Source: an uncultured Solirubrobacterales bacterium (GTDB taxonomy: Bacteria; Actinomycetota; Thermoleophilia; Solirubrobacterales; Solirubrobacteraceae). Taken from it: 64,000 bases of DNA. Positions 17,328 to 64,000 of the stretch are shown here, one piece after another. The notes below the pieces were generated by a model that was given only the letters and a program-made list of their open reading frames with translations, did no database searches and was not told the DNA's origin. The stretch is taken from contig CAVRYP010000009.1 of assembly GCA_963725525.1 (NCBI GenBank), forward strand, positions 417,111 through 481,110, in the 5' to 3' direction. The position numbers and the translations under genes are program-made. Every line of letters starts with the position of its first letter. The stretch's first letter is position 1.

Positions 17328-18383
17328 TCAGGCCGCGCGCGTCACGCGGCCCTTGCCGTTGCGCTTGCCGTGCAGCAGCGCGGCGTCGCAGGCGTCGAGC
17401 AGCTCGTCGGTGCTCATCGGCTCACGCCACTGCGCCACGCCGATCGAGGCGCTCACGCCGGGGACGACATCGAAGGAGGCCACCCCCAGCATGCGCTCGC
17501 GCGCGCGCTCGGCGGCGATGCCCGCGCGCTCGAGGTCGGCGTCGGCGAGGATCACCACGAACTCATCGCCCCCATAGCGCGCCACGCGATCGAAGGCACG
17601 AAACTCGCCCATCAGCGCATGGGCCACCCCGCGCAGCACCGCATCGCCCGCGGAGTGGCCGTGGCGGTCATTCACCTGCTTGAAGTTGTCGAGGTCGATC
17701 AAAAGGCACGAGAGCCGCCCGCCGGTGCGCGTCGCGCGGGCGATCTCTTCATCCAGGCGCCTGCGCATCGCGCGGTGGTTCATGCAGTCGGTCACCGGGT
17801 CGGTGCCCGCCTCCGCGCGCGCGCGCAGGAGCGCCAGCGCCGTCGCCGCCTGATCGACGAGCGTCGCGGCGCGCTGCATCGCGCGTCCATCGAAGGGCTC
17901 GGGGCTTTTGCGCGTGAGGATGCACACCGCCTCCACCTCGCCGCGCACCGCTAGCCCCAGCAGGAGCGCGGCCCCAACGCCGCCGGAGACCGCCAGGCGG
18001 GGGACGCTCGCGGCCAGCTCGCGCGCGCCCGTCACGACGACGCTCTGGCCGGTGCCGGCCACCCAGCTGACGCCCGGCGGGCGCTCGGCGTGCGGGGCGC
18101 TGTAGCTCAGGCGCCCTTCGCCGCCGAACATGTAGACCTCCACCCGGTCCTCGCCCTCGCACAGGCGGTGCAGCTGCACCTCTTCGCAGGCCAGCTCCGC
18201 GAACAGCTCCGCCGCCAGCGCGCGGAAGATCTCCTGCGAATCGCTCGCGCTGTCGGCGAGGCGCGTGAGGCGCCGCACGCCCGCGAGCAGCGAGTCGGCG
18301 TCAGCGATGGGCCGTGCGCCCGCGCCGGCCACCGCCGTGCCCATGCCCATCCGCTCGTGGGTGTCCGTACCCGCGCCTGCCAT
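17328..18383 (-). CDS. GAF-domain diguanylate cyclase
   Basis: TDPVT..NHR, DLDNFKQVNDRHGHSAGD, RAFD I-site, RYGGDEF. Confidence 0.88.
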   Translation of the reverse strand: MAGAGTDTHERMGMGTAVAGAGARPIADADSLLAGVRRLTRLADSASDSQEIFRALAAELFAELACEEVQLHRLCEGEDRVEVYMFGGEGRLSYSAPHAERPPGVSWVAGTGQSVVVTGARELAASVPRLAVSGGVGAALLLGLAVRGEVEAVCILTRKSPEPFDGRAMQRAATLVDQAATALALLRARAEAGTDPVTDCMNHRAMRRRLDEEIARATRTGGRLSCLLIDLDNFKQVNDRHGHSAGDAVLRGVAHALMGEFRAFDRVARYGGDEFVVILADADLERAGIAAERARERMLGVASFDVVPGVSASIGVAQWREPMSTDELLDACDAALLHGKRNGKGRVTRAA

Positions 18384-18430: not shown

Positions 18431-21400
18431 TCAGCCCCGGAAGGTCACCGTTACGTGCGTCACCGAGGAGGGGCTCTTGTTGGAGGGAATGAAGCCCACG
18501 CGCACCTTCACCTTGAGGTTGTGGTTGCTGCGCGCCAGCGCCTTCACGCCGCCGTTCGTGAGCGGCACCTTGAGCGTGATCTTCTGGGCCTTCGAGGTGT
18601 GGCGATAGGTCGTCTTGAGGTTCGCTCCGCTGCCGCTCACGCGCCCCGCGGAGGGCGTCTGCACGGTGAGGATCGCCATGTGGTTGGAGGTCTTGTGCGC
18701 GGTCACCTTCACCGAGCACCCCGCCACGACGATCGGCGTCTTCTGGCTGATCACGGCGCCGCTCTGCGCGGTGATCGTGGTTGGCATCGTGAGCGCCTTT
18801 GCGCACAGGCTGCCATTGGACGCAAGCGCCGAGTTGGGGCCGGTGGGGAGGTTCAGTTCGAACGCCGACACCGGCACGTCGGGCACCGCGGCGAAGGTGG
18901 AGGTCGTGACCCCGTTGGTGATGTTGGTGTTTCCGACCAGGATCGTCTCCACGCCATCGCTGCCATTGAGCACGAGATCGAGATCGGGGAACGCGGCGCC
19001 TCCGTGGGAGACGAAGAACGCGGGACCCGTGAGCTTCACCGGCAGCACCGGCGTGGTGACCGTCGCCCCGCCCACGCGCGAGTTGGAGGGGCAGGCAAAG
19101 GGGTTGGCGTTGAAGACCGCTTCCTTGCACGCGTGCTGCAGCGTGGAGAGGCGCGAGGGGAGCTGCTTTGGCAGCTGCACCTTCACCGAGCGGATGTTGG
19201 CCTGCGGACCCGTGGGGTAGCCGATCTTCACGCCCAGGGCGGCGCCGATCGACTTCGAGGTCTTCGCGTTGGAGGAGGCCGTGAACTTGGGCTTGAATGC
19301 CAGCGCGCTGCAGTTGGCCGCCTGGAAGGGACTCGAGAGGTTCTGCGTGGCCCCAAACGTCGAGGTGAGCGCGCTTTCGGTGGCGAGCACGCCGCAGTTG
19401 GTGGGGTTGATGAGGAAGCCCTGGCGGTTGATCGCCACGGCGAGCTTCTTCAGGCGCAGCGGCACGCCCTTCACGATCGTGGGCAGCTGGCTGGAGATCG
19501 TGACGCGCGCGGTGAAGGGGTTCACCGTGAGACCCGCGCGCACCACCACCAGGCCGAAGTTGAACGGTCCGCTGGCCGCCGCGACCTCAACGGTCATCCC
19601 GTAGGGCGCGCCGCCCACCGGGCCGGTGAGGAAGACCGGGCCCGTGAACTGCGTGGGCGTGGGGCCCGAGCCAACCTGTGTCACCGCCGTGCCGATCTGG
19701 CTCGCAAACGGACATTCGCCGTTGGTGGCCTGCGGCTCGGGGCACAACTGCGGCACCGACGGGATCAGGCCCACGAGCCCCGCGGGGAGCGTGGTGGCGA
19801 CCTTTGAGAGGTACTGCTGCCCATCGCCGCGTTCGAGGTTCAGCGTGAACGATGTCTGCGCGCCGGCCGTGGTGGGGTTGCTCTGCGTGTTCTGGCTCAG
19901 CGAGAAGGGCAGCGGCGAGGCGCAGCTGCCCCCGCTGCCGTTGCTGTCCACGGTGAAGGCGCTGATCGGCCCCACCGCGGGCGTGCCGGTGTAGGGAGCG
20001 AGGCTGGTGCTGGTCGTGGCGACGCCGCAGGAGAGCGGGTTGCCAAGCGGCGCGAGCGGCCCGCCGGTGAACTTCAGGATCAGGTTGCTGAAGGGCTGTT
20101 CGGGGTTTTCGTTGAACAGCGCCGTGAGGCGGCCCGTCGTTTCGTTGGGCACGATCTGACCCTGCAGGCGCACGGAGATCCCGTAGCGCGTGGACTCCAC
20201 GTCGAGGTACACCGTGAAGGGGGGTCCGGTGATCGGTGCGATCGCGCCGCCGCTTTCGGGACCGCCCAGATACATCGCTCCCGTGAGCGAGCCCGCGGGC
20301 AGCCCTGGCACGTCGAGCGTCGCGGTGCGCGACCTTCGAGCCGGCGGGACAGGTGACGCGGTTCCTTGGTGTGGATGCCGATCTGCTTGGGCGTGCATGC
20401 TTCAAGACCATGCGCCGCGGAGGGATTGAGCGTCATCCCTTCGGGCAGCAGGATGCTCGCGGTCTTCAGCTGCGCCGAGTCGAGGTTGGCGGGGTTGGGG
20501 TCGTGCGGGAGCACCAGTTCGGTGGTTGCGCCATCGGGCAGATCGGACTGCGTCGTTTCCGGCGCGAGCGAGAACGTCGGCGCGAAGGGGACCAGCGCGA
20601 AGGGGGGCAGGCCGTTGCAGCCTTCGGTGCCCACGGGCACGGTGTAGGAACTCGAGGCGTTTGCCCCTTCGTAGGATTCACCGCTCCAGCCGGTGGTGCT
20701 CGCGGGCCCGGCGCCCAGGCAGCTGCTGGGGTTGCTCACGAAGGCGCCGTTTTCGAGCGGACCGTTGTTGCCAAAGAAGGTGAGGCGCGATTCGAGCAGG
20801 CCGGGCGTGATGTTGTGAATTTCGAAGAGGTCGTGATAGTCGCTCGCCCATTCGACGTGCCCCTCGATGAAGGTGTGCACGAAGACTCCCGCGCCAACCT
20901 GCAGCGCCACGCCGAAGTACGAGGACATGCCGGTGGGCTGTTCGAGGTTGTAGACCTTCCCCGTGAGCGGCACATCCGCGAATACACCCGCAGCGACTTC
21001 GAGCACCGTCGTGACTTCGTTCTTGCCGATCACCGTGCTCCCAGCGCCGCTTTCGGCACATTCGGGCGCGGCAAAGAGATGCTTCACCGGTTCCACTTCG
21101 GTGGAGGTGAACTTTTCCACCGAGCACTTCGCCACGGCCTCGGGGTTCGTGCTCACCCCCGGCGCCACGTCGATGCGAAGGTTCTTGAGGTTGCCTTCGG
21201 GCGCGGACGCGGGAAAGGGCACCGTCTGGATCTGCCTGCGCTTGAGCTTGAAGTCGGTGACACCAAAGGGAGGATGCCCCGATGCCTGCGTGTAGGCCTG
21301 TGCTTCCGCGTTCGCCTTTTCTTCCGCAGGCGACGCGGCCTTGTTGCAGGTTTCGATCTTGCAGTTGGACGCGAAGAAGCTTTCCAGCCCGAATTCAGGC

Positions 21401-21483
21401 GCGGCCTGAGCGGCGGATGCGAAGATGGCCATCGTCGCACCAACCATCAGCGCGAGGAGCGAAACGCGAGCGGGGGACCTCAT
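18431..21483 (-). CDS. Large secreted Cys-paired repeat protein (paralog 1); frameshift near 20350
   Basis: Signal peptide MRSPARVSLLALMVGATMAIFASAAQA; shares NP.SC, LP.GM...PS.A.GL.AC, P..PFS.L.L.F, LPSRL.TL..AC, VSHGG.AFPDL and PDVPVS.FELNLP.GP.S with 53040 and 59386. Confidence 0.8.
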
Positions 21484-21553
21484 TACCAACCTCCCTATTG
21501 GACAGGTGGTCTCTACCCGCTTTTCGAGAGTTCTAACCGATGCAACCGTTCCG

Positions 21554-50685: not shown

Positions 50686-51369
50686 CTAGGGAACCACGAT
50701 CGTGAAGGCGTAGCCCGTCGCGAGAGTTGTGGTGCCGGGCGTGTAGGTGTCGACCTCAAAGGCGCTCGCGGGACAGTTGGGGTGGTTTGCGTTGACGACG
50801 ATCGTGCCGGGTGCCCCGCCTGTGCTGTAGGAGACCTCGGGTGAGACCGTCACCGAGGTTGCGGCTGCGTTGACGGGAGCCGCCGGCGTGACGCAGTAGG
50901 CCCCTGCGGCGGGCTCTGTGAGGCCGGCGATCCCAGCGCTCTGCGCGGCGATCAGGTTGGCCTGGGTGGGCGAGGCGGTGGGCTGCACGAGCCCGTAGCC
51001 CGCGGTGCCCGAGGGCCCAGCGGGACCCTGGATGCCCTGTGGGCCGGTGGCGCCCGTGGCGCCCTTCGCGCCGGTGGCGCCCTTCGCGCCCTTGGCGCCC
51101 GTGGCGCCCTTCAGCCCACGCGGACCGGGCACGCCGGTGAAGCCGCGCGGCCCACGAGGACCGCGCAGGAGGCACTCGCGCACACGATGGTGGCCGGAGA
51201 GGACGGTTACGCATCTGGAGCGCGCCTCATGCGCGGTGGTCCCCAGCAGGCTCGTGCCGGCGAGGGCGGGGACGGCGACGGTCATCGCGCCCACCACGGC
51301 GGGGGTCGCGAGGAGGGTGAGCGTGCGGGGGTGCAGACGACGGCGCGGAGCGCGCGAGGAGCGATGCAT
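50686..51369 (-). CDS. Secreted collagen triple-helix repeat protein
   Basis: Signal-like N-terminus; about 18 consecutive Gly-X-Y triplets; Cys-containing C-terminal domain. Confidence 0.8.
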
Positions 51370-51466
51370 TTGGAGGTCCCTTTCCGTTGGTTGCTTTCTA
51401 GAGAACACTCGGGCGAGCTCAGCGGAGCGGTGGAACGGCCGCGGGCGGCGCGCACCGACTCCAGTC

Positions 51467-52486
51467 TCAGCCCACGTTTTGGGGGAGGCGTGCGGGCAGC
51501 CCGGCGCGCACCGCGGGGCCGGGGGCGCCGGCGAGCGAGTCGACGGGGGCGTTGCGCTCCTCGCGCACGATGTAGAGGGGGCGGTGCTTGACCTCGTCGT
51601 AGATGCGCCCCACGTACTCGCCGATCACGCCGAGGGCGATCAGCTGGATCCCCCCGAGCAGGAGGATCGCGATCGTGATCGAGCCGAAGCCGGGCAGGTA
51701 GGAGTCCACCAGGCGCAGCCCGATGACGACGGGGATCGCGATGAAGGCAACGCCGGCGGAGAGCAGCCCCACGTAGGTGGCGAGCTGGAGGGGAAGGTGC
51801 GAGAAGGAGGTGATGGCGTCGAGCGAGAAGCGGAGCATGCGTCGCAGCGTGTACTTGGTCTCCCCGGCGTGGCGAGCGTCGCGCTCGTAGGGGACGGCGG
51901 TCTGCGTGAAGCCCACCCATACGGTCATGCCGCGCAGGAAGCGCGAGCGCTCGGTCATCGCAAGCAGGGCGTCGAGCGCGCGGCGGTCGAGCAGGCGGAA
52001 GTCCCCGGAGTTGGGCTCGAGGTTGACCTGGGCGAGCTTGTCGAAGAGCTTGTAGAACCAGGAGGCGGTGGCGAGCTTGAAGGCGGTCTCGCCCTCGCGC
52101 TGCCTGCGCACGGCATAGACCACGTCGGCGCCCTGCTGCCACTGCTCGAGCATCGTGGGGATCAGCTCGGGGGGGTCCTGGAGGTCGGCGTCGATCATCG
52201 CCACGACGTCCCCCACGGCGTGCTCGAGGCCGGCGGTGAGGGCCGCCTGGTGGCCGAAGTTGCGGGAGAGGTGGACGACGCGCACGCGCGGATCGGCGTC
52301 GGCGAGGCGATCGAGCAGCGCTCCGGTGCCGTCGGAGGAGCCGTCGTTGACGAGCACCAGCTCGATGGCGTAGTCGGCGACGGCCGCGAGGGTGCGGCTC
52401 ACGAACAGCTCGACGAGGGCCTCCTCGTTGTAGACGGGGGCCACGACGCTGAGCAACTTGGGAGAGCGGTGGGAGGAAGTGGGCAT
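51467..52486 (-). CDS. GT2 polyprenol-phosphate glycosyltransferase (GtrB-like)
   Basis: [53 protein letters not shown]. Confidence 0.92.
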
Positions 52487-52563
52487 GGTGCTTGGGGAAG
52501 CTGCTTTAAGGTGTGTACGTGAGAAGACTAGAGAACCCTTCCTCGCTGGCGCGGCACCCGAGC

Positions 52564-52965
52564 ATGCCGGTGGTGGTGCAGTTCGTGAAGTTTGGCATCG
52601 TTGGCGTGAGCAACACGCTGCTCTTCTTCGCCGTCTTCACGCTGCTGCTGAAGGGCTTCGGCGTGTGGTACCTGGCGGCCTCGGGCATCGGCTTCACGGT
52701 GGGCGCGGTGAACGGCTTCCTGCTCAATCGCCGCTGGACCTTCGCGGGCCACGTGGGCGACGCGCTCACGCCGGTGCGCTGGACGATCGTGCAGGGCAGC
52801 GGCCTGCTGCTGAACCTCGCGCTGGTGGCGACCTGCGTGGAGGTCATCGGCATGGACGAGCTCGTGGGCCAGGCGATCGCGATCGCGGTCGTGGTGGTGG
52901 TGACGTTCATGGCCAACCGCGCCTGGACATTCCGCACGCGTCCGGGGGAGGCGAGCTCGGGTTGA
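52564..52965 (+). CDS. GtrA-family flippase
   Basis: QFVKFGIVG, FLLNRRWTF, FMANRAWTF. Confidence 0.88.
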   Translation: MPVVVQFVKFGIVGVSNTLLFFAVFTLLLKGFGVWYLAASGIGFTVGAVNGFLLNRRWTFAGHVGDALTPVRWTIVQGSGLLLNLALVATCVEVIGMDELVGQAIAIAVVVVVTFMANRAWTFRTRPGEASSG

Positions 52966-53039: not shown

Positions 53040-55772
53040 TCAGCGCTTGGCTTTCTTTGCTTTCTTCGCCTTCTTCGCGGGCTTGACCTTGGGGCAGCCG
53101 GTGACGGAGATCTTCGTGCTCTGCACCACCTGCGCGCCGTTCTGCGCCGTCATCGTGGTGGGCATCACGAGCTTGGTGGAGCAGAAGCTGCCGCTGGCCT
53201 TGGCGGGAAGATTGGGGCCGAGCACGGAGTGGGGGCCCTCGGGGAGATTCAATTCGAAGGTGCTCACGGGCACATCGGGCACCGAGGCGAAGGTGCTCGA
53301 GGTGATGCCATGCGCAATCGAGGTGTTCCCCACCAGATCGAGACGCACCCCATCGCCCTGCAGGACGAGAACGAGATCGGGGAACGCCTCCCCACCGTGC
53401 GACACGAGATAGGCAGGCCCGGAGACCGGTACAGGGAGCACCGGCGTGAACCCCTTGGCGGTCCCCACGATCGACCCCGCGGGACAGTTGGCGGGGTTGG
53501 CTTCGAACACGGCCGCAACACACGCAAGGCGCAAGGTAGTCAACCGCGAGGGAAGCTGCACGGGCAACTTCACCGCGACCTTTGCGACATTGGCCTGTCC
53601 ACTCGTGAACGCGATCTTCACGTGGAGGCTGGCGCCCTTCGTGTGCGAAGCATGAGCCTGCGTGGAAACCGTGAACTTCGGCTTGAAGGCAAGCGAAGCG
53701 CAATCCGCCGCCTGAAAACGACTCGACAGCGAAGCACTCGCGCCCTCGCTACTCGCGATCATCGCGCTCGAGGAGAGCGGCGCACAACTCGTGGGGTTGA
53801 ACATGAAGCCCGAACGGTCGATCGTGACGTTCACGGCCCGCACATCGAGCGGGATGCCCTGCAAGATCGTAGGCAGCGGATCGCTCGTGATCATGATCTG
53901 CGCCGTATGCGGATCCGCATTGATCGTCGCCCTCACCGCGACATTGCCAAGGTTGAAGGGGCCGGCAACCGCCGGCACGACGATCAGAAGACCAAACGGC
54001 GCGCCCTTGTAGGGGCCCGTGAGAAAGACCTGGCCGCCGCCGACGGTAACTGGATCGGGGCCCGGCCCCGCCACCGCGGTGACGTGCCCAATCAGGCTCG
54101 CCGCCGGACACGCTGTCTGCGCAGCCTGCGCTTCGGTACAGAGCGGCACCTGCGAAAGCATCCCAAGGAGACCGAGAGGAGGCTTCACCGAGATCGCACC
54201 CAACGGCTGATCCCCATCAGGACGGGTGATCGTCGTGATGAACGGGGAAAAGCTCCCCGCCGGATTATTGGCCGTGCCGGCAACGAACGACGGCGAGAAC
54301 CCAGGCGCATCGCACCCAGAGACGATCGGGAAAGGCGTGACCGAAGGCAATACGGTGGCGCCGTTCCAGCCCGTGAGCTTCACGTTGGGGACATGGTTGC
54401 CGCACGTAGGTGGCGTTATGAGAGCGGCACGAGATCCTTCATAGAACCGTAGCTTGAGATCGCTGAATGGCAGCTGCGGGTTTTCATCGAATGTCGTGGT
54501 CAGCTGTCCCGTCGCCGGATCGGTCTGGACGTGCCCAGCAAGCTTGAGCACCACCCCATCGCCCGCAGCCGTCACATAGATCGCGAGCAGCGACCCAAAC
54601 GGATTGTCGCCCTGCGCCGCAACATATACCGACCCCTCCAATGGATGTTCGAGCAGCGGTGTCGTGACTTCCACGTCGCCGATCTTCGACGCAGGAGGAC
54701 ACGCCGGTTCATCGCCATTCGTAAGCCCAATCTCGGTCGACGAGCACGCTTCCAACCCATTGGCAACCGAGGGGGAAACGACCATCCCCGCAGGCAATGT
54801 CACGACCGCGTCCTTGAGGTCGGCCTCAGCGAGTTCTTCGGGCTTTTCATTCTGGGGAAGCTTGACATCGACATCGAGGCCGCTCGGCGTGTTCGCAGCC
54901 AACGTGGTTGGCTGGACCGTGATTTCGGGGCTGAAGTCGAGCTTATTACACCCAGTCATCTCAAGCTGATGGCCACGACCATCCGTCATCGGATACGACT
55001 GCGTCACGGGATAATCAAAAGGACGCGGCTCTTCAAAAGGTTCCTCCCACGAATCCATGCTAGCGACGCTTTCCAACGGTACGTCACACGACGTCGGATT
55101 CCGCAACAACGACCGCCCCGGCGGCGCACCCGTACCATGTTCAGACGGGATGCCCCACAATATCAATGAACTACGTAAAAGCTTGAGCTGAACAATGTTA
55201 CTGACCACAGCCTTCAAGGCATAACCTTCTCCAGTTCGAACGCCGAAATCAACAAATCCGACCCTATACTGGAGAGCAAAGCCAAACTGCGCCGGCATAT
55301 CTGGCGGCGGCACAAGATTGTAAACGGGGATTTCAAATCGAGCATTGCCTTCGATGACGAGAATCTCCCAGCCAACCTGCGTATCAGCTGGACATTCAGG
55401 TACGAAATTGCGCCTCGTGGTGTCAAATAACGCCCTGGGGCACTTGGGAGTCGCACTAGGATTACCAACGAATCCAGCAGGCAAGCCAATTTCCAGATCC
55501 TTCACTTCTCCGCCTGCTGGATATAGGTCTCCAACACTATTCATCGTAAAGCTAGTGAGCAACTCATACGGGTGCGAGCCCGCCGTGGTTTCAGGCGAAC
55601 CGTCTGCCCCGATAGGCATCTGTTCGAATTGTTCGAAACCAAAGGGTGCTGCGACCGCTGAGGCGGTCCATATTCCGACCGTTACGACTACAGCCGTTGC
55701 TAACGTAGCCATAATTCCGAAGATTCCCCACAGAGCCTTCGACTCTTGACCATTCCATCTCCGGCCTCTCAT
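53040..55772 (-). CDS. Large secreted Cys-paired repeat protein (paralog 2), Lys-rich tail
   Basis: Signal peptide; AGSHPY, NP.SC, DLKDAVVTLPAG, ENPQLPFSDL; ends KPAKKAKKAKKAKR. Confidence 0.85.
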   Translation of the reverse strand: MRGRRWNGQESKALWGIFGIMATLATAVVVTVGIWTASAVAAPFGFEQFEQMPIGADGSPETTAGSHPYELLTSFTMNSVGDLYPAGGEVKDLEIGLPAGFVGNPSATPKCPRALFDTTRRNFVPECPADTQVGWEILVIEGNARFEIPVYNLVPPPDMPAQFGFALQYRVGFVDFGVRTGEGYALKAVVSNIVQLKLLRSSLILWGIPSEHGTGAPPGRSLLRNPTSCDVPLESVASMDSWEEPFEEPRPFDYPVTQSYPMTDGRGHQLEMTGCNKLDFSPEITVQPTTLAANTPSGLDVDVKLPQNEKPEELAEADLKDAVVTLPAGMVVSPSVANGLEACSSTEIGLTNGDEPACPPASKIGDVEVTTPLLEHPLEGSVYVAAQGDNPFGSLLAIYVTAAGDGVVLKLAGHVQTDPATGQLTTTFDENPQLPFSDLKLRFYEGSRAALITPPTCGNHVPNVKLTGWNGATVLPSVTPFPIVSGCDAPGFSPSFVAGTANNPAGSFSPFITTITRPDGDQPLGAISVKPPLGLLGMLSQVPLCTEAQAAQTACPAASLIGHVTAVAGPGPDPVTVGGGQVFLTGPYKGAPFGLLIVVPAVAGPFNLGNVAVRATINADPHTAQIMITSDPLPTILQGIPLDVRAVNVTIDRSGFMFNPTSCAPLSSSAMIASSEGASASLSSRFQAADCASLAFKPKFTVSTQAHASHTKGASLHVKIAFTSGQANVAKVAVKLPVQLPSRLTTLRLACVAAVFEANPANCPAGSIVGTAKGFTPVLPVPVSGPAYLVSHGGEAFPDLVLVLQGDGVRLDLVGNTSIAHGITSSTFASVPDVPVSTFELNLPEGPHSVLGPNLPAKASGSFCSTKLVMPTTMTAQNGAQVVQSTKISVTGCPKVKPAKKAKKAKKAKR

Positions 55773-57865
55773 TTCTTCTTGCCTCCGGACAGGCCATACT
55801 TACCCCGGGCTTTTCTGATGCATGCAGCGCGCCTCGGCTTGGATCGTCGGTTACACGCCCTTAGCGCGAGCGCTAGCTTCTGCTTTCGTGCGAGCGGTGC
55901 AGATCTTACCGTCTTCGCGCTGGGCGATGTTGTAGAGATGGGGTTTCCGGCCCCTGTAAATACAGCGCTAGACGGAGGCACGAATGACTGGGGGGTTGAC
56001 GGACCGGAATGGCATGCTTCACTCGAACACTGCAGAGGCTGGTAGGGCTTTTCTTCATATCCGCCCACACGGGCATCGTATAGGGCTGTCATTTCACCCT
56101 GCCCATCGGGCAAAAGTGACTGCTCGGTCGTGAAGTACACATCGTTCCCATTTTCGCTGGCGTCAGCAAATACAGCTTCTGCTTCGGGAGCTTCGGCGGG
56201 CGAAAGCAAGTAGATATGTCCGCCCTCATACTCATATACATCCGAGTTTCCGTTTACATCCTGGGGCAAGACAGCGTCCTTTGTACTAAAGAACAACTGT
56301 CCACCGTTATTCAGATATCGCTGCTCATAGACCCCGTTGGTGGCCGACGGGAGTAGGGTGTCCCTCGTAGGGGAGGTGCCGTTGGTATTGCATGACACAC
56401 ACACAAGCTGCTTTGCCGCGAGGCTATATAGGTAGACCTCGTAATCACGTCCAATTCCACTTGCATCCTTATTTTCATACGCCGTTAGCTTCGCCTTTGA
56501 CATGAACGCGACGTATTCGCCATTAGGCGAAACCTCCGCCGTACGACCAGCAAATGTCCGAAACCAATCCCCATATGGTTCGCTAGTTCCATACAGATTC
56601 GGTGTCCTGTTATCGGCGCGTGACAATGTCACGATATATGTCAGCTTTCCTCCATGGGAAAGATATAGGTTTGGCTGTTCAGCTACCGGTCCTTCGATTT
56701 CACCTAGAGCATCCATATCGACGAAGTACACGTAACTCGCGTCAGCGCTGGTACCGAGTATTCCCTGGACCCCCCCAGCAGCAAGTTCAGCGGTTGACTC
56801 GGTAACAGTATTGTACTCGTATAGACGTTCTTCCTTCGTAAAGACAACAATGGAACCGTCTACACTGGCAGTCTGAAACTCGGCACCTGCTGCGATTAGC
56901 ACAGTTCTTTTACCGTCTTCTCGTACATATAGATTCCCAGTGTTCTCATCAGTCCAAAAAATCCGGGAACCGTCGGCCGATATGACATTAGCCAAGCTTG
57001 GCATAGAGCCAAGCCCGATATTATAGGTATCTCCATTGTCGATGCCAAACGCTGCATTAGGCTCTGTTTCACCGTTTGGTAAGACGTTTACGAGTCGTAA
57101 ACTTCCGTCGAACCACTCGTACAGATTGTTCTCAAGTTCTCCTCCATCGATGGCCGCTGATGCAAATATATTCGCCGGAGTCAATGCGTCGTTTGCCTCG
57201 AATAATATATGGCTGAAGGCGGGAGCGACATTAGTGCCGTTATTACCGCCCGCGAACAGCAGCTCAGCTATATCTTCACTTTGCCCATACCGTGCGTGGC
57301 CAAAAGTTGTAGGACTGCGATGCAGCGGCGCACCCGTAATCAACGGACGAACATTCCCGCCTTGGAAGAGATAGAGATTCGCAAAACCGGTAGGCGCTTC
57401 TTCAGTCAGCGAGATTCTACTGCTTATGACCGCCCTGGAAAGGTCCGGAGAGAAACCAACGAAACGATTGGCCGCAAGTGCCTGTTCAGCCGAAGACGGC
57501 ACACCGGGTGTCAGGTTTTGAGTCAGCCAGCCGACAGGGCCCAGTGAAGAAGCATACTGATCGAGACTGCCAAGCCGTGGCAGGTAGAAATCTTCGCCCA
57601 CATAGGTAACTGTGCTTCCAGTCGCGGCGCTTTGCATTGGACGACCGAACTGTTCCAGTGAATGCGTTAGACCACTTAGTGGAAATACCCCCCCGCCGCC
57701 AGGCGATCTCGGAGATACAAGTTCGTAGCCTCTACTGTCCGGCAATACTAGAGCACTTGAGATGCCGGGAGCAAAGAGTACGCAACAAATGCAAACCAGC
57801 ATCGACAACGGAGCACATGTGCACTTGTATATTGTACGCCTATTCCCTTTCACGCTGCTCATCAT
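55769..57865 (-). CDS. Secreted beta-propeller-like (TolB/PD40-like repeats) protein
   Basis: Signal peptide; YELVSP, ISADGSRIFW, ASVDGSIVVF, VSPNGEYVAF, ASENGNDVYF; ATGA coupling to next gene. Confidence 0.8.
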   Translation of the reverse strand: MMSSVKGNRRTIYKCTCAPLSMLVCICCVLFAPGISSALVLPDSRGYELVSPRSPGGGGVFPLSGLTHSLEQFGRPMQSAATGSTVTYVGEDFYLPRLGSLDQYASSLGPVGWLTQNLTPGVPSSAEQALAANRFVGFSPDLSRAVISSRISLTEEAPTGFANLYLFQGGNVRPLITGAPLHRSPTTFGHARYGQSEDIAELLFAGGNNGTNVAPAFSHILFEANDALTPANIFASAAIDGGELENNLYEWFDGSLRLVNVLPNGETEPNAAFGIDNGDTYNIGLGSMPSLANVISADGSRIFWTDENTGNLYVREDGKRTVLIAAGAEFQTASVDGSIVVFTKEERLYEYNTVTESTAELAAGGVQGILGTSADASYVYFVDMDALGEIEGPVAEQPNLYLSHGGKLTYIVTLSRADNRTPNLYGTSEPYGDWFRTFAGRTAEVSPNGEYVAFMSKAKLTAYENKDASGIGRDYEVYLYSLAAKQLVCVSCNTNGTSPTRDTLLPSATNGVYEQRYLNNGGQLFFSTKDAVLPQDVNGNSDVYEYEGGHIYLLSPAEAPEAEAVFADASENGNDVYFTTEQSLLPDGQGEMTALYDARVGGYEEKPYQPLQCSSEACHSGPSTPQSFVPPSSAVFTGAGNPISTTSPSAKTVRSAPLARKQKLALALRACNRRSKPRRAACIRKARGKYGLSGGKKK

Positions 57866-57910
57866 GACACGTCGATCATCGCTGCACAGTTTATGTCTCT
57901 AACTAGTCTC

Positions 57911-57947
57911 GAAACCATGTGGGACCGCAGTGGTCCCACATGGTTTC
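57911..57947. terminator. Perfect 16-bp stem-loop inside the operon (stabiliser/attenuator)
   Basis: GAAACCATGTGGGACC-GCAGT-GGTCCCACATGGTTTC. Confidence 0.75.
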
Positions 57948-57975
57948 TTCGACTTTGGTTTAGTGGTGAGACCTA

Positions 57976-58803
57976 CTATTCATTGAATGCACCGAATTCT
58001 CCGCCAGCAGTTAATTCTACCTTTATCTTGCCTTGCAATTCGGCCGGATTGGTCCCGAGGAAGAGCCTCGGCTTGATTACGGTTGCTTGATGATGCAGTT
58101 CCTTTATATTGGGATCAAGCCATGTAAGATGGCCTGCGGTTGCGTCGGCATTCTGGGGTTCGACTAAGGCAGCCGTACCCCAAACTATAGCATGTTCTTC
58201 ATTATTTTGATCGATAAACGTCGTCCTAGGACCTCTGGCGAACACTGTCAGATTGCCGACGCAGACGGTACCAGCAGGAATACGAATCGTTGTGAATGGT
58301 GCCTGGAATTCGCCTTTACCGACGGTCCCTATTTCTTCAGGTGTGGACGTCGGTGCAAAGGCATCATAGATTTTTTGCTGTCCTACTTTTGTGAGTTCTT
58401 CCGCTTCGCCACGATATTTCCACATCAGTTCTGTGAAGGCTTTTGTTTCGTCGACTGTCACTGTGTTGGCGACTTTACACGGTTCCAGCAGAGAACATTC
58501 TTCCCACTTAACTTCTGTATTATCCTCTCCTTGATGAAGGCCGTTCCAAATATTGCCTTTATCTTTTACTTTATTACACTGGACAGTCGCTGGTGCTCCT
58601 GCAATAATACTTTTTAGTTGGAAGCCTCCTTCGTTTATGCTTTTGACCTGATGCTCTTCATTTAGTTTCCATTTTACTTGTTTGCCGCCTTCCGGATGTC
58701 TCCACCACGGTCCTTCCAATGCGGCCGACGCCGCAGTAGACGCAACCGAGCCCACTGCCATAACAGCCAGCAAGCTCAGTAGCAGAACTTTAAATCGAAA
58801 CAT
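57976..58803 (-). CDS. Small secreted beta-rich protein, low GC
   Basis: GGGAG RBS; signal MFRFKVLLLSLLAVMAVGSVASTAASA; 4 Cys; AT-rich codons. Confidence 0.75.
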   Translation of the reverse strand: MFRFKVLLLSLLAVMAVGSVASTAASAALEGPWWRHPEGGKQVKWKLNEEHQVKSINEGGFQLKSIIAGAPATVQCNKVKDKGNIWNGLHQGEDNTEVKWEECSLLEPCKVANTVTVDETKAFTELMWKYRGEAEELTKVGQQKIYDAFAPTSTPEEIGTVGKGEFQAPFTTIRIPAGTVCVGNLTVFARGPRTTFIDQNNEEHAIVWGTAALVEPQNADATAGHLTWLDPNIKELHHQATVIKPRLFLGTNPAELQGKIKVELTAGGEFGAFNE

Positions 58804-58826
58804 ACTCAGACAACTCCCTTCGGTTC

Positions 58827-58856
58827 TGCTAGAAGACGTCGAAGCGTCTTCTAGCA
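58827..58856. promoter_or_regulatory. Perfect 12-bp stem-loop in the 5' leader
   Basis: TGCTAGAAGACG-TCGAAG-CGTCTTCTAGCA. Confidence 0.65.
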
Positions 58857-59385
58857 ATCTATAGAGCCGATCCCGCGGATCGACCTTCGGTATGTTCTGA
58901 ATGCCGTCGCGATGAACGCGATGACCTCTAGGAGAGTACCGACGGTCCAAACGTCGTCAAGAAATCTTCTTGGCTAGGACTGATTATTCGGGCCATCCAG
59001 AACTACGGGGCAATAGCATTCCAGCGCTGCCCGAATATCCGCATGTACAAGCGGTTTTAGCCGAGACCCGGCAGACTCAGAAGTCGGGAACGAAAAATCC
59101 AGACTCTATCCGATAACTAGAATTATAAGAACAAACAGCAGACTAGCTGCACGCAACGTCCCCTCCAGAGACCCGCCGCGTCCCCTCCCTCAGCGCAATC
59201 GCTACCGGCAGCAGCAGCAGCAGCAGCAGCCTGGGGCCCGCCTGGAGCCCCCTGGCAGGCCGGCACCATCAGCGTCGACGTGGTCGAGCGGCCCGAAGAC
59301 GACCCTACATCTCTGCGGGAGCTGCGCCGCGTGCCAGCGCGGCTGAGACATCGGGTGCACTGGACGGGGTGCCGCGGCGGGCGGT

Positions 59386-62300
59386 TCAGTGCTTGGTCTT
59401 CTTCGCTTTCTTGGCCTTCTTCGCGGGCTTGACCTTGGGGCAGCCGGTGACGGCGATCTTCGTGCTCTGCACCATCTGCGCGCCGTTCTGCGCCGTCATC
59501 GTAGTGGGCATCACGAGCTTCGTAGAGCAGAAGCTGCCGCTGGCCTTCGCCGGGAGGTTGGGGCCAAGCACCGAGTGGGGACCCTCGGGGAGATTCAGTT
59601 CAAAGGAGCTGACGGGCGCGTCGGGCACCGAGGCGAAGGTGCTCGAGGTGATGCCATGCGCGATCGAGGTGTTCCCCACGAGATCGAGACGCACCCCATC
59701 CCCCTGCAGGACCACCACGAGATCGGGGAACGCCTCGCCACCGTGCGACACGAGATAGGCAGGCCCGGACACGAGAACGGGAAGCACCGGCGTGAGAGCC
59801 TTGGCGGTCCCCACGATCGACCCCGCGGGGCAGTTGGCCGGGTTCGCTTCGAACACGGCCGCAACACACGCGAGGCGCAGGGTGGTGAGCCGCGAGGGGA
59901 GCTGCACCGGCAGCTTCACCGCAACCTTCGCGATGTTGGCCTGCCCGCTCGCGAGCGCAACCTTCACGTGGAGGCTCGCGCCCTTCGTGTGCGAAGCGTG
60001 AGCCTGCGTGGAAACCGTGAACCTGGGCTTGAAGGCAAGCGCGGCGCAATCCGCCGCCTGGAAGCGACTCGACACGGTGGCACTGGCGCCTTCGCTGCTC
60101 GCGATCGTCGCGCTCGAGGAGAGCGGCGCACAACTCGTGGGGTTGAACGTGAAGTTGGAGCGGTCGATCACGACATTGACGGCCCGCACATCGAGCGGAA
60201 TGCCCTGCAGGATCGTGGGCAGCGGATCGCTCGTGATCGTGATCTGCGCGGTGTGCGGATCCGCATTGATCGTCGCCCTCACCGCAACATTCCCGAGGTT
60301 GAACGGCCCAGCAACCGCGGGAACGACGATCAGAAGACCAAACGGCGCGCCCTTGTAGGGGCCAGTGAGAAAGACCTGGCCCCCATTGACGGTAACCGGG
60401 TCCGGGCCCGGCCCCGCCATCGCAGTGACGTGCCCGATCAGGCTCGCCGCCGGACACGCCGCCTGCGCAGCCTGCGCTTCGGTACAGAGCGGCACCTGCG
60501 AGAGCATCCCCAAGAGACCCGGGGGAGGCTTCACCGAGATCCCGCCCAACGGCTGATCCCCATCGGGACGGGTGATCGTGGTGATGAACGGGGAAAAGCT
60601 CCCCGCCGGATTGTTGGCGGTACCCGCGACGAACGAGGGAGAGAACCCTGGCGCATCGCACCCAGACTTGATCTGGAAAGGCTGGATCTGAGGCGTCACG
60701 ACGGCGCCATTCCAGCCGGTGAACTGCGCCACCGGCGTGTAGCTCCCGCATGCGCGGGGGGTCACGAGCGCCGCGCGTGGCCCCCCGAAGAAGTTCAACG
60801 TGAGATCGCTGAAGGGCAGCTGCGGGTTTTCATCGAACGTCGCCGTCAGCTGACCCGTCGCCGGATCCGCCTGCACATGACCGGCGAGCTTGATCAGCGC
60901 GCCATCGGCCTTCGCAGTCACATAGATCGCGAGCAGCGAGCCAAACGGGTTTTCGCCCTGCCGGGCTACATACACAGAGCCCGTGAGCGGCGTATCGAGC
61001 AGCGGCGTGTGCCCTGTCACCGCGCCGATCTTCGAGGCATCCGGGCAGGTCGGCTCATTGCCGTTGCTGATCCCGATCTCCGTCGGTGTGCATGCGGCCA
61101 GTCCGTTGGCGACAGACGGCGAAACGGTCATCCCCGCGGGCAGCGTCACCACCGCGCCCTTGAGATGAGCTGTCGCGAGCCCTTCCGGATTCGGGTTCTG
61201 CGGCACGCTCAGCTTGACTTCGAGACCCGTGGGGGTGTTCGTCGCCGAGGTTTCCGGCCTGACTTCGAGCGCGGGATTGAATTCGAGCTTCCCACAGCCC
61301 TGCATCGCGAGCTGGTTGCCCTTGTTGTCCGTCACCGGATAGGGGGCCGTCACGGGATAGGAGAAGGGAGGGATGGGGATACTAGGGCCGAGAGGGATCG
61401 CCGGCTGCACCCAGGAGTCCATGCTGAAGAGGTCGCTCAACGGGGTGCCGCACGAGGTGGGCATCGTCATCAGCGGCACCGACGAAGGCGCTACCGATGC
61501 TCCCCGTTCCGCGTCGTGGGAGGGATCCGAGGGCTGGCCCCACAATACCAGCGAACTGCGCAGGACGCGTACCTGCAGCAGATTTCGAAGGACGGCCTTC
61601 ACCGCGTAGCCTTCACCGGTACGCACACCGAAATCGATGAATCCAAGCAGGTTCTGGAGGGCGAACGCGAACTGGGCGACCACGCCGGGGGGCGGTTCGA
61701 GATTGTACACCGGAAACGCCGTAACGAAGTTGGCCCGACCCCCCTCAGCCTCGCTGGCAAGCAGCGTGCCGACCTGGGTATCCGCCGGACATGGGTGGAG
61801 CGATACTTGTTCCCTGTTGGCATCGAAGGTCGCCTTCGGACACATCGGTGTCGCAGTCGGATTGCCCACAAGACCAGGCGGCAGACTGACTTCCAGATCC
61901 TTTATTTCCCCTGGCAGCGCGCGCGCTTCGCCGACCTGACCGTGACTGTTTACCACGAAGTTCACGATCGCCTCGTAGGGATGCGAGCCGGCCTGCGTGT
62001 CTGGAGACCCATCGCGATTCAGCACAAGCTGTTCGAAGCTCGCCAGCCCGAACTTCGCCGACGACGAACCGATCTCGGTCTGCGTGGTGTTCTTGGCTTC
62101 GCTCGCGCCGCCCCCGGTGACGCTCACCACGTTTTCAGCCGCTCGTTCAGCGGCGTGGCTATCGATCCCGACGTGGATGACTATGTTCGGAGCAGTCTGC
62201 GTTTCGGGGACACTCTCCGGCGCTACCGTGATCACAGGAAGACCAACCGGATTGCTGGTGCACGTCACGACCGAGGTCCCTGTGCACCGCCAGTATTCTT

Positions 62301-62604
62301 CGCCTGTAGGTTCGGTTTCGATGAATTCACCATCGGCCGACGTCGCTTCCACACCCGGCGGGAGCCGATCCACCACCGTGACAGTCGATCCATTGGTCGC
62401 TGCCGTGCCGACATTCCTTACGTGCAACACATACGACCCTGTGCCGCCGGGGGCAAAATTCGTCGGAAAGCTTTCCGAAGTGACCTCGAGCACCGGACCT
62501 TCGGCAGCCATACCGGGGGCCGCGAGCGCCATGGCCGCCGCGAGCGCCACGACGAGCCCGACCGCTGCCGCAAGCGGCGACTTGACGAAACACGAACGCA
62601 TCAC
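59386..62604 (-). CDS. Large secreted Cys-paired repeat protein (paralog 3) with N-terminal DUF11-like Ig domain
   Basis: Signal peptide; YVLHVRNVG...VTVVDRLPPG; same core motifs as paralog 2; Lys-rich tail. Confidence 0.85.
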   Translation of the reverse strand: MMRSCFVKSPLAAAVGLVVALAAAMALAAPGMAAEGPVLEVTSESFPTNFAPGGTGSYVLHVRNVGTAATNGSTVTVVDRLPPGVEATSADGEFIETEPTGEEYWRCTGTSVVTCTSNPVGLPVITVAPESVPETQTAPNIVIHVGIDSHAAERAAENVVSVTGGGASEAKNTTQTEIGSSSAKFGLASFEQLVLNRDGSPDTQAGSHPYEAIVNFVVNSHGQVGEARALPGEIKDLEVSLPPGLVGNPTATPMCPKATFDANREQVSLHPCPADTQVGTLLASEAEGGRANFVTAFPVYNLEPPPGVVAQFAFALQNLLGFIDFGVRTGEGYAVKAVLRNLLQVRVLRSSLVLWGQPSDPSHDAERGASVAPSSVPLMTMPTSCGTPLSDLFSMDSWVQPAIPLGPSIPIPPFSYPVTAPYPVTDNKGNQLAMQGCGKLEFNPALEVRPETSATNTPTGLEVKLSVPQNPNPEGLATAHLKGAVVTLPAGMTVSPSVANGLAACTPTEIGISNGNEPTCPDASKIGAVTGHTPLLDTPLTGSVYVARQGENPFGSLLAIYVTAKADGALIKLAGHVQADPATGQLTATFDENPQLPFSDLTLNFFGGPRAALVTPRACGSYTPVAQFTGWNGAVVTPQIQPFQIKSGCDAPGFSPSFVAGTANNPAGSFSPFITTITRPDGDQPLGGISVKPPPGLLGMLSQVPLCTEAQAAQAACPAASLIGHVTAMAGPGPDPVTVNGGQVFLTGPYKGAPFGLLIVVPAVAGPFNLGNVAVRATINADPHTAQITITSDPLPTILQGIPLDVRAVNVVIDRSNFTFNPTSCAPLSSSATIASSEGASATVSSRFQAADCAALAFKPRFTVSTQAHASHTKGASLHVKVALASGQANIAKVAVKLPVQLPSRLTTLRLACVAAVFEANPANCPAGSIVGTAKALTPVLPVLVSGPAYLVSHGGEAFPDLVVVLQGDGVRLDLVGNTSIAHGITSSTFASVPDAPVSSFELNLPEGPHSVLGPNLPAKASGSFCSTKLVMPTTMTAQNGAQMVQSTKIAVTGCPKVKPAKKAKKAKKTKH

Positions 62605-64000
62605 TGGCCCCTCCTCCGATTGCTCGAGCCATATCGCCTGCGCGCCTGCACTTCACACGCGGTCCGCCTGTGCCTGTTGCGCTTGGCGCGGCAAGCCTTC
62701 AGTGCCCTGGCAAGCCTCTGTGCATGGGTCAATGGCTTGGGCTTCATCGGCCCGTGTGGTATGGCGTTGCCCTGCCCGCCGAAGGCAGCGCTGACAGGCG
62801 CCTGGAAGGAGGAGGCCGAAACAGCCGAATCATGGCACGCTTCGCCCGAGCACGGCGCAAGCGAGCCTTCTTCGGCGCGTCCACTCACACGCGCGTCATA
62901 TAGATCGACATTCTGGTCCCGATCGGCCGGTACGAGCTGCTCCCGCGTCGTGAAGAACACGTCGCTCCCGCTTTCGCTGGCATCCGCGAACACCGCATCG
63001 TCTCCCGCCGTCCCGGGTGAGATCAGATAGACATGGCCTTCCCGGTATTCGTACACGTCCGAGGCCCCATTGATGTCCTGAGGCAACACGGGATCGCGCG
63101 TGCTGAAGAACAGGCGCCCACCGTCGTTGAGGTATCGCTGCTGGTAGGTGGCGTTCTGAGGCGCCGGCACCCCCGTTTCGCCGGTGGGCCGCGTCCCGTC
63201 GGTGTTGCACGAGGCGCACGCAAGCGTCGCCGTTGCAGAGTCATACAGGAAGAGCTCGAGGTCGGCGCGGCCGCTGACGGTAGCGTCTGTGTTGTCGTAT
63301 CCGGTGAGGGGCCTATGCGACACGAACGCTACGTAGCGCCCATTGGGCGAGACCTCCGCGGTGCGCCCCGCGAAGGTGCGGTACCAGTCGCCTTCCACGA
63401 CGTTGCTCCCTTCTCCCTTCACTTCGTTGTCTGCCGGCGAAAGCGTCGCGATGAATCGCGTTTCGCCTTCATGGGAAAGATAGAGGTTCGGCTGCCCGGC
63501 TTCCCCATGTCCGTTCAAGACGCTTGTGGAGATGAAATAGACGTAGGCGCCGCTGTCGCTCGCGCCGAGCATGCCCTGCACCCCGCCACTCGCGAGATCG
63601 CTCGTCATTTCGCTGGCCGTGCTGTATTCGTAAAGGTGTTCTTCCTTTGTGAAGAACACCTTCGTTCCGTCGACGCTCGCCGTCTGGAACTGAGCGCCCG
63701 TTGCGATCAGCGTGGTCCGTTCACCGCTTTCGCGGACATAGAGGCTGCCGCTGTTCTCGTCAGTCCAGAAGACCTTCGAGCCGTCGGCTGAGATCACATG
63801 ACTCAGGTTTGGAAATACCAGAGAGCCCGGGTATACATCGCTATATTCGATGCCAAATGAAGCCCCGGGCTCGGTCTGCCCATCCGGAAGGATATTCACT
63901 AAATGCAAACTGCCATTCGTCCACTCGTAGAGGTTGTTCTTCAGTGCGCCTCCGTCCACAGCCGCGGGGGCGGTCGCCGTAGCTGGAGTCAACGCGTCGT
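62601..64000 (-). CDS. Second secreted beta-propeller-like protein (5' part outside window)
   Basis: Colinear with 55769: NNLYEW, ISADGS, GDWYRTFAGRTAEVSPNG, DVYEY, LYDARV; overlaps start of paralog 3. Confidence 0.82.
   Translation of the reverse strand, partial: DALTPATATAPAAVDGGALKNNLYEWTNGSLHLVNILPDGQTEPGASFGIEYSDVYPGSLVFPNLSHVISADGSKVFWTDENSGSLYVRESGERTTLIATGAQFQTASVDGTKVFFTKEEHLYEYSTASEMTSDLASGGVQGMLGASDSGAYVYFISTSVLNGHGEAGQPNLYLSHEGETRFIATLSPADNEVKGEGSNVVEGDWYRTFAGRTAEVSPNGRYVAFVSHRPLTGYDNTDATVSGRADLELFLYDSATATLACASCNTDGTRPTGETGVPAPQNATYQQRYLNDGGRLFFSTRDPVLPQDINGASDVYEYREGHVYLISPGTAGDDAVFADASESGSDVFFTTREQLVPADRDQNVDLYDARVSGRAEEGSLAPCSGEACHDSAVSASSFQAPVSAAFGGQGNAIPHGPMKPKPLTHAQRLARALKACRAKRNRHRRTACEVQARRRYGSSNRRRGQ

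Follow-up and report, generated by a model that had tools for sequence, protein, structure and literature searches.

The PE and PPE proteins of mycobacteria form a lineage-specific, expanded family that takes up several percent of the genome, is often encoded by adjacent co-transcribed gene pairs whose products act jointly at the surface, and diversifies by duplication and recombination; these proteins are helical and are exported by type VII secretion. The csc clusters of Lactobacillus, Enterococcus and Listeria encode paralogous, Sec-secreted proteins, present in about nine copies (Siezen et al., 2006, PMC1534035; review PMC5817068). Here, we analyzed a 64,000-nucleotide stretch of DNA (the window) from an uncultured Solirubrobacterales bacterium (GenBank assembly GCA_963725525.1, contig CAVRYP010000009.1; G000:C9:417111-481110). 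Gene coordinates are given as window positions unless prefixed C9. Five genes follow each other on the minus strand across positions 53040-64000: propeller A', large A, a small secreted gene, propeller B and large B. With a probability of about 0.5, we consider that these genes belong to a lineage-specific, expanded set of Sec-exported units, in which a propeller would sit on a beta-sandwich stalk, and which would provide a variable repertoire for surface binding and recognition and probably do not polymerise into a fibre.

A previous reading of this DNA, made from its letters alone (the sequence-only reading), had described two tandem propeller/large pairs with stop/start overlaps. All five genes were found, as well as both 4-bp (base pair) overlaps between the propeller stop and the large start, at 55769-55772 and 62601-62604. 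Large A and large B share 75% identity (E = 0), and propeller A and propeller B 56% identity (E 4e-170). The small gene that was said to head one copy is present, 580 bp from large A, but the other module is headed as well, by a second small secreted gene located just outside the window (C9:481896-482840). Both copies are thus three-gene modules. Similarly, the two tandem copies are real but are part of a much larger family, since 27 copies of the large gene were detected in the 3.5 Mb, 80%-complete assembly. Of these 27 copies, 25 are immediately preceded by a propeller gene, and the 4-bp overlap is also found in most of the paralogous pairs. Overall, the large and propeller family accounts for 165.6 kb, or 4.7% of the assembly.

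We then analyzed the distribution of the family. In a complete genome (4.1 Mb) from the same genus, we counted about 37 full-length large genes, nearly all preceded at 500-600 bp by a propeller gene and many arranged in arrays with a spacing of about 10.7 kb; the family represents about 7% of this genome, an upper estimate obtained from open-frame lengths. Matches were observed in 147 of the 301 sampled genomes of the order, including 15/15 of the same genus, and several genera of the same family gave none (this tally takes in three unpublished genomes, G346, G325 and G464, on which no specific claim rests). Outside the order, a single sampled genome of the phylum gave a match. Database searches returned more than 6000 large-protein homologues and 12469 representative propeller relatives. 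Named homologues are annotated as hypothetical or "TIGR01451 repeat protein", and named organisms are Solirubrobacteraceae. Likewise, the 75 related loci that were fetched are all titled as uncultured Solirubrobacterales or Solirubrobacteraceae metagenome-assembled genomes (MAGs). Gene order, for which a survey had been proposed, is conserved: the propeller gene is directly upstream of the large gene in 73 of the 75 loci, the other two having too little upstream DNA, and this order is present in three families of the order Solirubrobacterales.

Most of these loci contain an additional gene. A regulator of about 330-360 amino acids (aa), composed of a TetR N-terminal domain (E ~1e-10) and a MarR-like C-terminal winged helix just under the cut-off, flanks the module in 51/75 loci, mostly just 3' of the large gene and on the same strand. 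Examples of this TetR-MarR fusion, an unusual dual DNA-binding architecture, are found at L024:7958-8944 and L025:998-2080. In 47/75 loci the propeller is of a long form (about 1300 aa), in which NHL repeats and FN3 domains precede a PD40 propeller. Based on these counts, the canonical unit is propeller, large and regulator. The small secreted gene was found in only one of the 75 related loci, at 5 of the 27 loci of this genome and as 49 database homologues. The window modules form a variant subfamily: their propeller is short, they lack the regulator and they carry the small gene in addition.

None of the five window proteins gave a match over the cut-offs of Pfam or NCBIfam, and profile searches of PDB sequences with all three alignments returned nothing significant. 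Searching the ESM Atlas with D1 (the first domain of the large protein, see below) and the small protein as queries retrieved only unnamed actinobacterial clusters, and a literature search on propeller, surface or paralogous secreted proteins of Solirubrobacterales yielded no description of the family. By these comparisons, the propeller/large family is new and covered by no curated family. These results agree with the sequence-only reading, which had recognised no known monoderm system here and had described a secreted module with a Cys-paired large protein; in every search that we ran, the module came out as secreted, Cys-paired and non-enzymatic. None of the outcomes that this reading had named as refuting, such as matches to known enzymes or a lack of conserved gene order, was observed.

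To describe the large protein, we used an AlphaFold (AF2) model of large B built on a 41-sequence alignment (mean pLDDT 80, pTM 0.69). The model is nearly all beta. Four homologous repeats (D1 to D4) were delimited at residues 41-277, 278-486, 487-690 and 691-895, with hhalign values of 85-99% for most pairs. The protein contains 16 cysteines, which make two pairs per repeat; each repeat ends with (T/S)GC, and the C-terminal "VTGC" is the end of the fourth one. As all 16 cysteines pair within domains, none is free for polymerisation through disulfides. Using Foldseek, we retrieved strings of immunoglobulin (Ig)-like domains, namely PrgB, antigen I/II C123, Bap and integrin-alpha legs (E to 2.6e-8, TM-score ~0.14). 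A Foldseek-independent (VIA) search gave YcnI (Z 10.7, rmsd 2.8 over 119 residues), the Nocardia DUF1775 protein 3esm (Z 9.1) and YweA (Z 8.2), and at lower ranks many Gram-positive pilins and adhesins (Z ~7). These matches are a likeness at the level of the fold only.

Across 21 intact paralogues, mean pairwise identity increased along the chain, from 0.37 in D1 to 0.50 in D2, 0.61 in D3 and 0.71 in D4; judged by these values, the N-terminal end of the large protein is variable and its C-terminal end is constant. D1 also contains invariant His and Cys residues, including an AGSHP motif. The N-terminal extension of large A, absent from large B, reached 14.3 bits against DUF11 (cut-off 24.6), and some large homologues carry a PF01345 or JGI TIGR01451 label. 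The ~205-aa stalk domain itself has no Pfam model. In another family of the order, this domain is repeated many-fold in frames of 5628 and 7223 aa (G306:C8:9473-24307 and G309:C7); no propeller match was obtained in G306 at E <= 1e-20.

For the propeller, a PD40 match of 15.5 bits was observed with propeller A' (cut-off 20.9) and none with propeller B, compared to 28.8 bits for a homologous long paralogue. The proteins are made of internal repeats (hhalign 90-97%), and their halves align with each other in several registers. Profile matches in the PDB, all sub-threshold, were TolB, DPP4 and a Methanosarcina S-layer propeller protein. We take the window proteins to be probable PD40-type propellers. 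One alternative would make the propeller a catalytic, for instance lactonase- or lyase-like, secreted enzyme with the large protein as its carrier or scaffold. The long paralogues indeed combine NHL repeats with a weak SGL/gluconolactonase-like match (E 0.009, below cut-off), PF08450 is found on some fused relatives, and D1 has its invariant His and Cys, with the AGSHP motif. However, the short window propellers lack the NHL part entirely, no enzyme family match reached the cut-off, no relative was found among PDB sequences, and hypervariability of the head is atypical of enzymes. Taken together, these observations make an enzymatic role very improbable.

Natural fusions provide the main argument for a joint action of the two proteins. 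We found 100 longer relatives (1594-3548 aa), of which 51 consist of a propeller (PD40, homologous to propeller B) followed by the four-domain region in a single chain. Domain order in the fusions is the gene order of the split modules, and nearly all fusions end with a Cys and a polybasic tail. About 30 of them form a class of ~2000 aa whose members are mutually diverged and come from several sources, and are for this reason not assembly errors. By the Rosetta-stone argument, the existence of these fusions suggests that the split propeller and large proteins act together. In the fusions, the propeller adjoins the variable D1, at the opposite end from the tail. One fusion, P0336, ends with VTGC followed by a Cys hairpin of the propeller type, which suggests that the tail is a portable C-terminal module. 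A complex prediction with the mature propeller (residues 38-698) and D1 of the large protein (residues 41-279) scored 0.28 compared to a mark of 0.32, and was not used as evidence. Two of the ~2000-aa fusions, P0388 and P0404, are assigned by NCBI to MAGs of Methanosarcina sp. and of a Nitrososphaerota archaeon; these assignments reflect either mis-binning or a transfer beyond the order.

We next considered how the proteins are exported and retained. Signal peptides were assigned by eye and with simple heuristics only. Neither an LPx[TSA]G motif in the last 80 residues nor a C-terminal hydrophobic segment was present in 21 large, 21 propeller and 5 small paralogues. The absence of LPXTG, lipobox and C-terminal transmembrane segment had been claimed before; LPXTG and transmembrane segment are absent from these 47 proteins, but a lipobox-like motif (VAAC or VVGC) lies within the hydrophobic core of the signal peptide in a few propellers, including propeller A. 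Because more hydrophobic residues and an AxA site follow this motif, cleavage by signal peptidase I is likelier in those propellers. As also claimed, the modules come with neither a sortase nor a pilus ATPase in view: only one sortase match was obtained in the genome (C2:222520), far from every module, and the flanks of the window modules contain none. A Pfam scan (E <= 0.1) of the five window proteins gave no match to SLH, CWB2 or WxL (PF13731). No chaperone or usher was found, the five window proteins being without a Pfam match and the 80%-complete genome without an Omp85 match, the latter being consistent with a monoderm envelope. The genome encodes a VKOR homologue, consistent with exported disulfides.

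By contrast with these absent signals, a common C-terminal feature was observed. Every intact large protein ends with 15-25 Lys/Arg-rich residues after the last Cys. Over the last 25 residues, the median net charge is +12 for the large proteins and +9 for the propellers, against -2 for the small proteins, which have no polybasic tail. Propellers end either with a tail resembling that of the large proteins or with a basic helix-Cys-x-Cys hairpin. These tails may hold the proteins on an anionic component of the envelope. Polybasic and Cys-hairpin tails are outside the recognised wall-anchoring modules of monoderms.

The small gene was analyzed further, since it had been proposed as the major subunit of a fibre. 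The AF2 model of small protein B (pLDDT 91.8) is a closed up-and-down beta-barrel and not an incomplete Ig fold, for which a check of the proteins had been suggested. Foldseek gave no significant match, and the VIA search gave OmpW and the N-terminal domain of OprF (both Z 9.0), with YceI, avidins, TbpB and lipocalin-like proteins at lower ranks. The abundance of Lys and Glu in its sequence and the lack of an Omp85 match in this assembly lead us to read the protein as a soluble barrel; the GC content of its gene is 0.48. Soluble barrel folds often carry small ligands. The barrel is unrelated to D1-D4. A comparison of the barrel with the N-terminal extension of long large proteins, which also start with PWW, gave an hhalign probability of 57.6%, partly over the signal peptide. 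As its distribution is narrow, the small protein is not a core subunit of the system, and its gene is, on the loci compared, an accessory of one narrow subclade.

Two predicted hairpins border the small gene (Table 1). At the site of the second one, after the stop codon, a long hairpin of different sequence was observed in 4 of the 5 other barrel-headed modules; recurring hairpins are located at L023:805-900, L026:2415-2560 and 11990-12130, and L029:8735-8870. This post-stop hairpin is probably functional, as an attenuator or as a stabiliser that raises the barrel message over the downstream genes. A (CTG)7 run located between large A and the small gene (Table 1) could allow variation of expression by strand slippage.

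A preferential expression of the barrel would suit a structural polymer, that is, a fibre, a sheath or an S-layer-like coat with one abundant subunit (the small protein) and with assembly or tip parts (the propeller and large proteins). The large domains do resemble pilin and adhesin stalks as well as the biofilm coat protein YweA/BslA, no enzymatic signature was detected in the Pfam and NCBIfam scans, and one of the weak, sub-threshold propeller matches was the Methanosarcina S-layer protein. However, the putative subunit is a closed barrel, and its gene is absent from 74/75 related loci and from 22/27 loci of the genome. In addition, all 16 cysteines are paired within domains, LPXTG, SLH, WxL, usher, chaperone and adjacent sortase are lacking, and single-chain fusions exist. 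Nor does a single structural polymer fit with dozens of diverged paralogues, of which many have a regulator of their own. We therefore consider a polymer quite unlikely. The proposal of a fimbrial operon with a small major subunit was not supported either, given a closed barrel (pLDDT 92) with 49 homologues, the lack of any sorting signal, usher, chaperone or ATPase, and the fusions. Judged by these features, separate receptor- or adhesin-like units, each under its own control, are a better fit than one polymer.

The evolution of the family was examined by sequence comparison. Over the last ~1.25 kb of their genes, large A and large B share about 90% of their nucleotides (Table 1), compared to 55-65% between the two modules outside this tract; judged from this alignment, the tract is a product of gene conversion or recombination. 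In a tree of 94 large proteins, we observed a strong clustering by genome, with eight copies from this genome in one clade and nine from another MAG in another. These genome-specific clades sit above several deeper subfamilies common to different genomes. The tree topology indicates a continuing in-genome amplification, a concerted evolution, or both. GC content at third codon positions (GC3) also changes along the module, from about 0.45 in the barrel gene to 0.5-0.6 in the propeller gene and about 0.8 at the 3' end of the large gene. The gradient (about 0.45 to 0.81) was found in all barrel-headed modules and in the array of the closest relative, which has at least three such modules (C9:470150-482840, C8:233015-249127 and C3:1-4957 in this genome; L029 for the relative). 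The rise in GC3 parallels both sequence conservation and the conversion tract, and a GC-biased gene conversion acting on the recombining 3' end might be its cause. A one-off horizontal transfer was considered for the low GC content at 55000-59000 and rejected, since the gradient recurs across the barrel-headed modules; its presence in the array of the closest relative makes the low GC a maintained property of the subfamily.

The same paralogues and regulators could be explained by substrate capture, as in polysaccharide utilisation loci or csc clusters, where each regulator would sense a soil compound and induce a cognate pair that binds a polymer or nutrient. A dedicated TetR/MarR regulator in 51/75 modules, numerous paralogues with variable head domains and a soluble barrel of a fold typical of small-ligand carriers all fit this possibility, and the csc clusters are a conceptual precedent (PMC1534035). 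In contrast, searches of the modules returned neither hydrolases nor transporters nor carbohydrate-binding modules, the arrays consist of two or three family genes only, and a recent amplification of near-identical copies would be odd for distinct specificities. On balance, substrate capture appears unlikely.

Returning to the propeller-on-stalk units, we propose the following model. The propeller and large genes would be translationally coupled through their ATGA overlap, so that both proteins are made together. Both would be exported via Sec and oxidised outside the membrane, each stalk domain acquiring two Cys pairs. The C-terminal tail (about 15-25 residues, net charge about +9 to +12) would then retain each protein on an anionic envelope component, and as the tail would hold the protein there, the conserved D4 end would be proximal. 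The variable D1 together with the propeller would form a distal, ligand-facing head, as in the single-chain fusions, implying contact between the split proteins. In-genome duplication and gene conversion of the conserved 3' end would generate and reshuffle the paralogues. Canonical modules, with their own TetR/MarR-type regulator, would probably be switched individually, and the variant subfamily of the window would add an extra, highly expressed soluble barrel gene set off by a hairpin.

Several points weigh against this model. The propeller fold of the window proteins rests on sequence comparison. Concerning the anionic partner, no TagF-type teichoic-acid polymerase was found in the 80%-complete genome, so that teichoic acid as the target of the tails found no support there; furthermore, a review of surface display in monoderms (PMC5817068) lists no polybasic tail of this kind as an anchor. 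Nothing in the modules, such as a transporter or an enzyme, points to a ligand. The regulator on which the idea of individual switching draws is absent from both window modules. Finally, all members come from uncultured MAGs.

More tentatively, and in our view possible rather than probable, the family could constitute a hitherto unrecognised, order-wide surface system, in which each cell would carry dozens of individually regulated, rapidly duplicating and recombining propeller-on-stalk receptors, anchored to the wall by cationic tails and amounting to a programmable recognition repertoire. If true, such receptors would serve to recognise substrates, mineral or plant surfaces or kin, or to evade phages or predators. 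They would have a genomic weight on par with that of PE/PPE proteins or polysaccharide utilisation loci, built from different parts, and the short cationic tail, alone or combined with a disulfide-stapled hairpin, would be a new type of anchor. Solirubrobacterales are abundant soil bacteria, nearly all uncultured, and one uncharacterised protein-pair family occupies about 5% of this genome. A major share of how these bacteria meet their surroundings would thus lie in uncharacterised proteins. The definition of the family also gives annotators three new domain models to build.

Coordinates of the modules and of other features of the window are presented in Table 1. An orphan third copy of the large gene, without an upstream propeller gene, is split into two overlapping frames. 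It may be a pseudogene or contain an assembly indel; split large copies are possibly artefacts, because the assembly is known to contain single-base errors. A GGDEF diguanylate cyclase gene (17328-18383) follows this copy. The window modules are flanked downstream by a convergent GtrA-like gene, then by a GT2 glycosyltransferase gene, and upstream, outside the window, by genes for a methyltransferase, an Nramp transporter and a YkuD transpeptidase; no assembly machinery was found in these flanks. The glycosyltransferase was rejected as a member of the operon, as the GtrA-like gene intervenes on the opposite strand, and both are likely a separate unit glycosylating a surface polymer. An open reading frame at 50686-51408 (minus strand) matched the Collagen triple-helix repeat (PF01391, E 2e-9), and may either encode a genuine collagen-like protein or be a shadow frame, rich in Gly, within high-GC DNA.

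Table 1. Location of the module genes, their subdivisions and the other features discussed (window positions; C9, contig positions).
Feature	Position	Strand	Description
Propeller A' (3' 465 codons)	62601..64000, cut by window end	-	full gene C9:479711-481810, 699 aa; basic Cys-x-Cys hairpin tail at the C-terminus
Large A, 1072 aa	59386..62604	-	signal peptide, DUF11-like N-terminal extension, four ~205-aa beta-sandwich domains, VTGC and polybasic tail
Gene-conversion (or recombination) tract, module A	59400..60640	-	3' ~1.25 kb of large A; ~90% DNA identity to 53060-54300
(CTG)7 run, gap between large A and small gene	59209..59229	-	just upstream of AT-rich promoter-like stretch, ~59100-59150
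13-bp hairpin	58826..58857	-	upstream of the ribosome-binding site of the small gene; -26.8 kcal/mol, z -3.1
Small secreted gene (module B), 275 aa	57976..58803	-	from ATG at 58803; signal peptide, mature N-terminus GPWW
16-bp perfect hairpin	57911..57947	-	between small gene stop and propeller gene; -40.3 kcal/mol, z -8.0
Propeller B, 698 aa	55769..57865	-	signal peptide, PD40-type repeated blades, Cys-x-Cys basic C-terminal hairpin
Large B, 910 aa	53040..55772	-	signal peptide aa 1-40, D1-D4, polybasic tail
Large B domains	D1 54942-55652, D2 54315-54941, D3 53703-54314, D4 53088-53702, tail 53043-87	-	
Gene-conversion (or recombination) tract, module B	53060..54300	-	3' ~1.25 kb of large B; ~90% DNA identity to 59400-60640
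GtrA-like membrane protein	52513-52965	+	PF04138, E 2e-25; converges on module B
GT2 glycosyltransferase	51467-52486	-	adjoins GtrA-like gene
Orphan third large-gene copy	18431..21489	-	two overlapping frames (655 and 469 aa), without upstream propeller gene

Finally, we compared the modules with the known systems. Like the csc/WxL clusters, they occur several times per monoderm genome, are probably co-transcribed and encode Sec-secreted proteins only, and for csc clusters non-covalent wall complexes have been proposed. They differ by the absence of WxL, DUF916 and LPXTG, by the combination of a propeller with four beta-sandwich domains, by the short polybasic tail and by the number of copies (27-37). 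Gram-positive pilins and the stalks of MSCRAMM, AgI-II and PrgB adhesins (CnaA/CnaB, DEv-IgG) share the tandem Ig-like stalk, the variable N-terminal head and the C-terminal attachment proposed here, and gave the best fold matches (Foldseek E to 2.6e-8, VIA Z ~7-8; identity 7-16%, TM-score ~0.14). The modules described here nevertheless have no LPXTG, pilin motif or adjoining sortase, and their ~205-aa domain contains Cys pairs. YcnI/DUF1775 and YweA/BslA were the best single-domain matches to D2, at 13-16% identity and at the fold level only; those proteins have a single domain and no propeller partner. The fusions, with a propeller, beta-sandwiches and a putative C-terminal attachment element, recall integrin alpha, and alpha-V legs were among the top Foldseek matches (E ~1e-6). 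This is an analogy of layout and not a homology, since the present proteins are bacterial, have a tail that is no transmembrane helix and usually carry head and stalk on separate chains. With the PE/PPE proteins, the family has in common an actinobacterial, lineage-specific expansion over several percent of the genome and a coding by adjacent pairs; the sequences are unrelated, and the propeller and large proteins are all-beta and carry Sec signal peptides.

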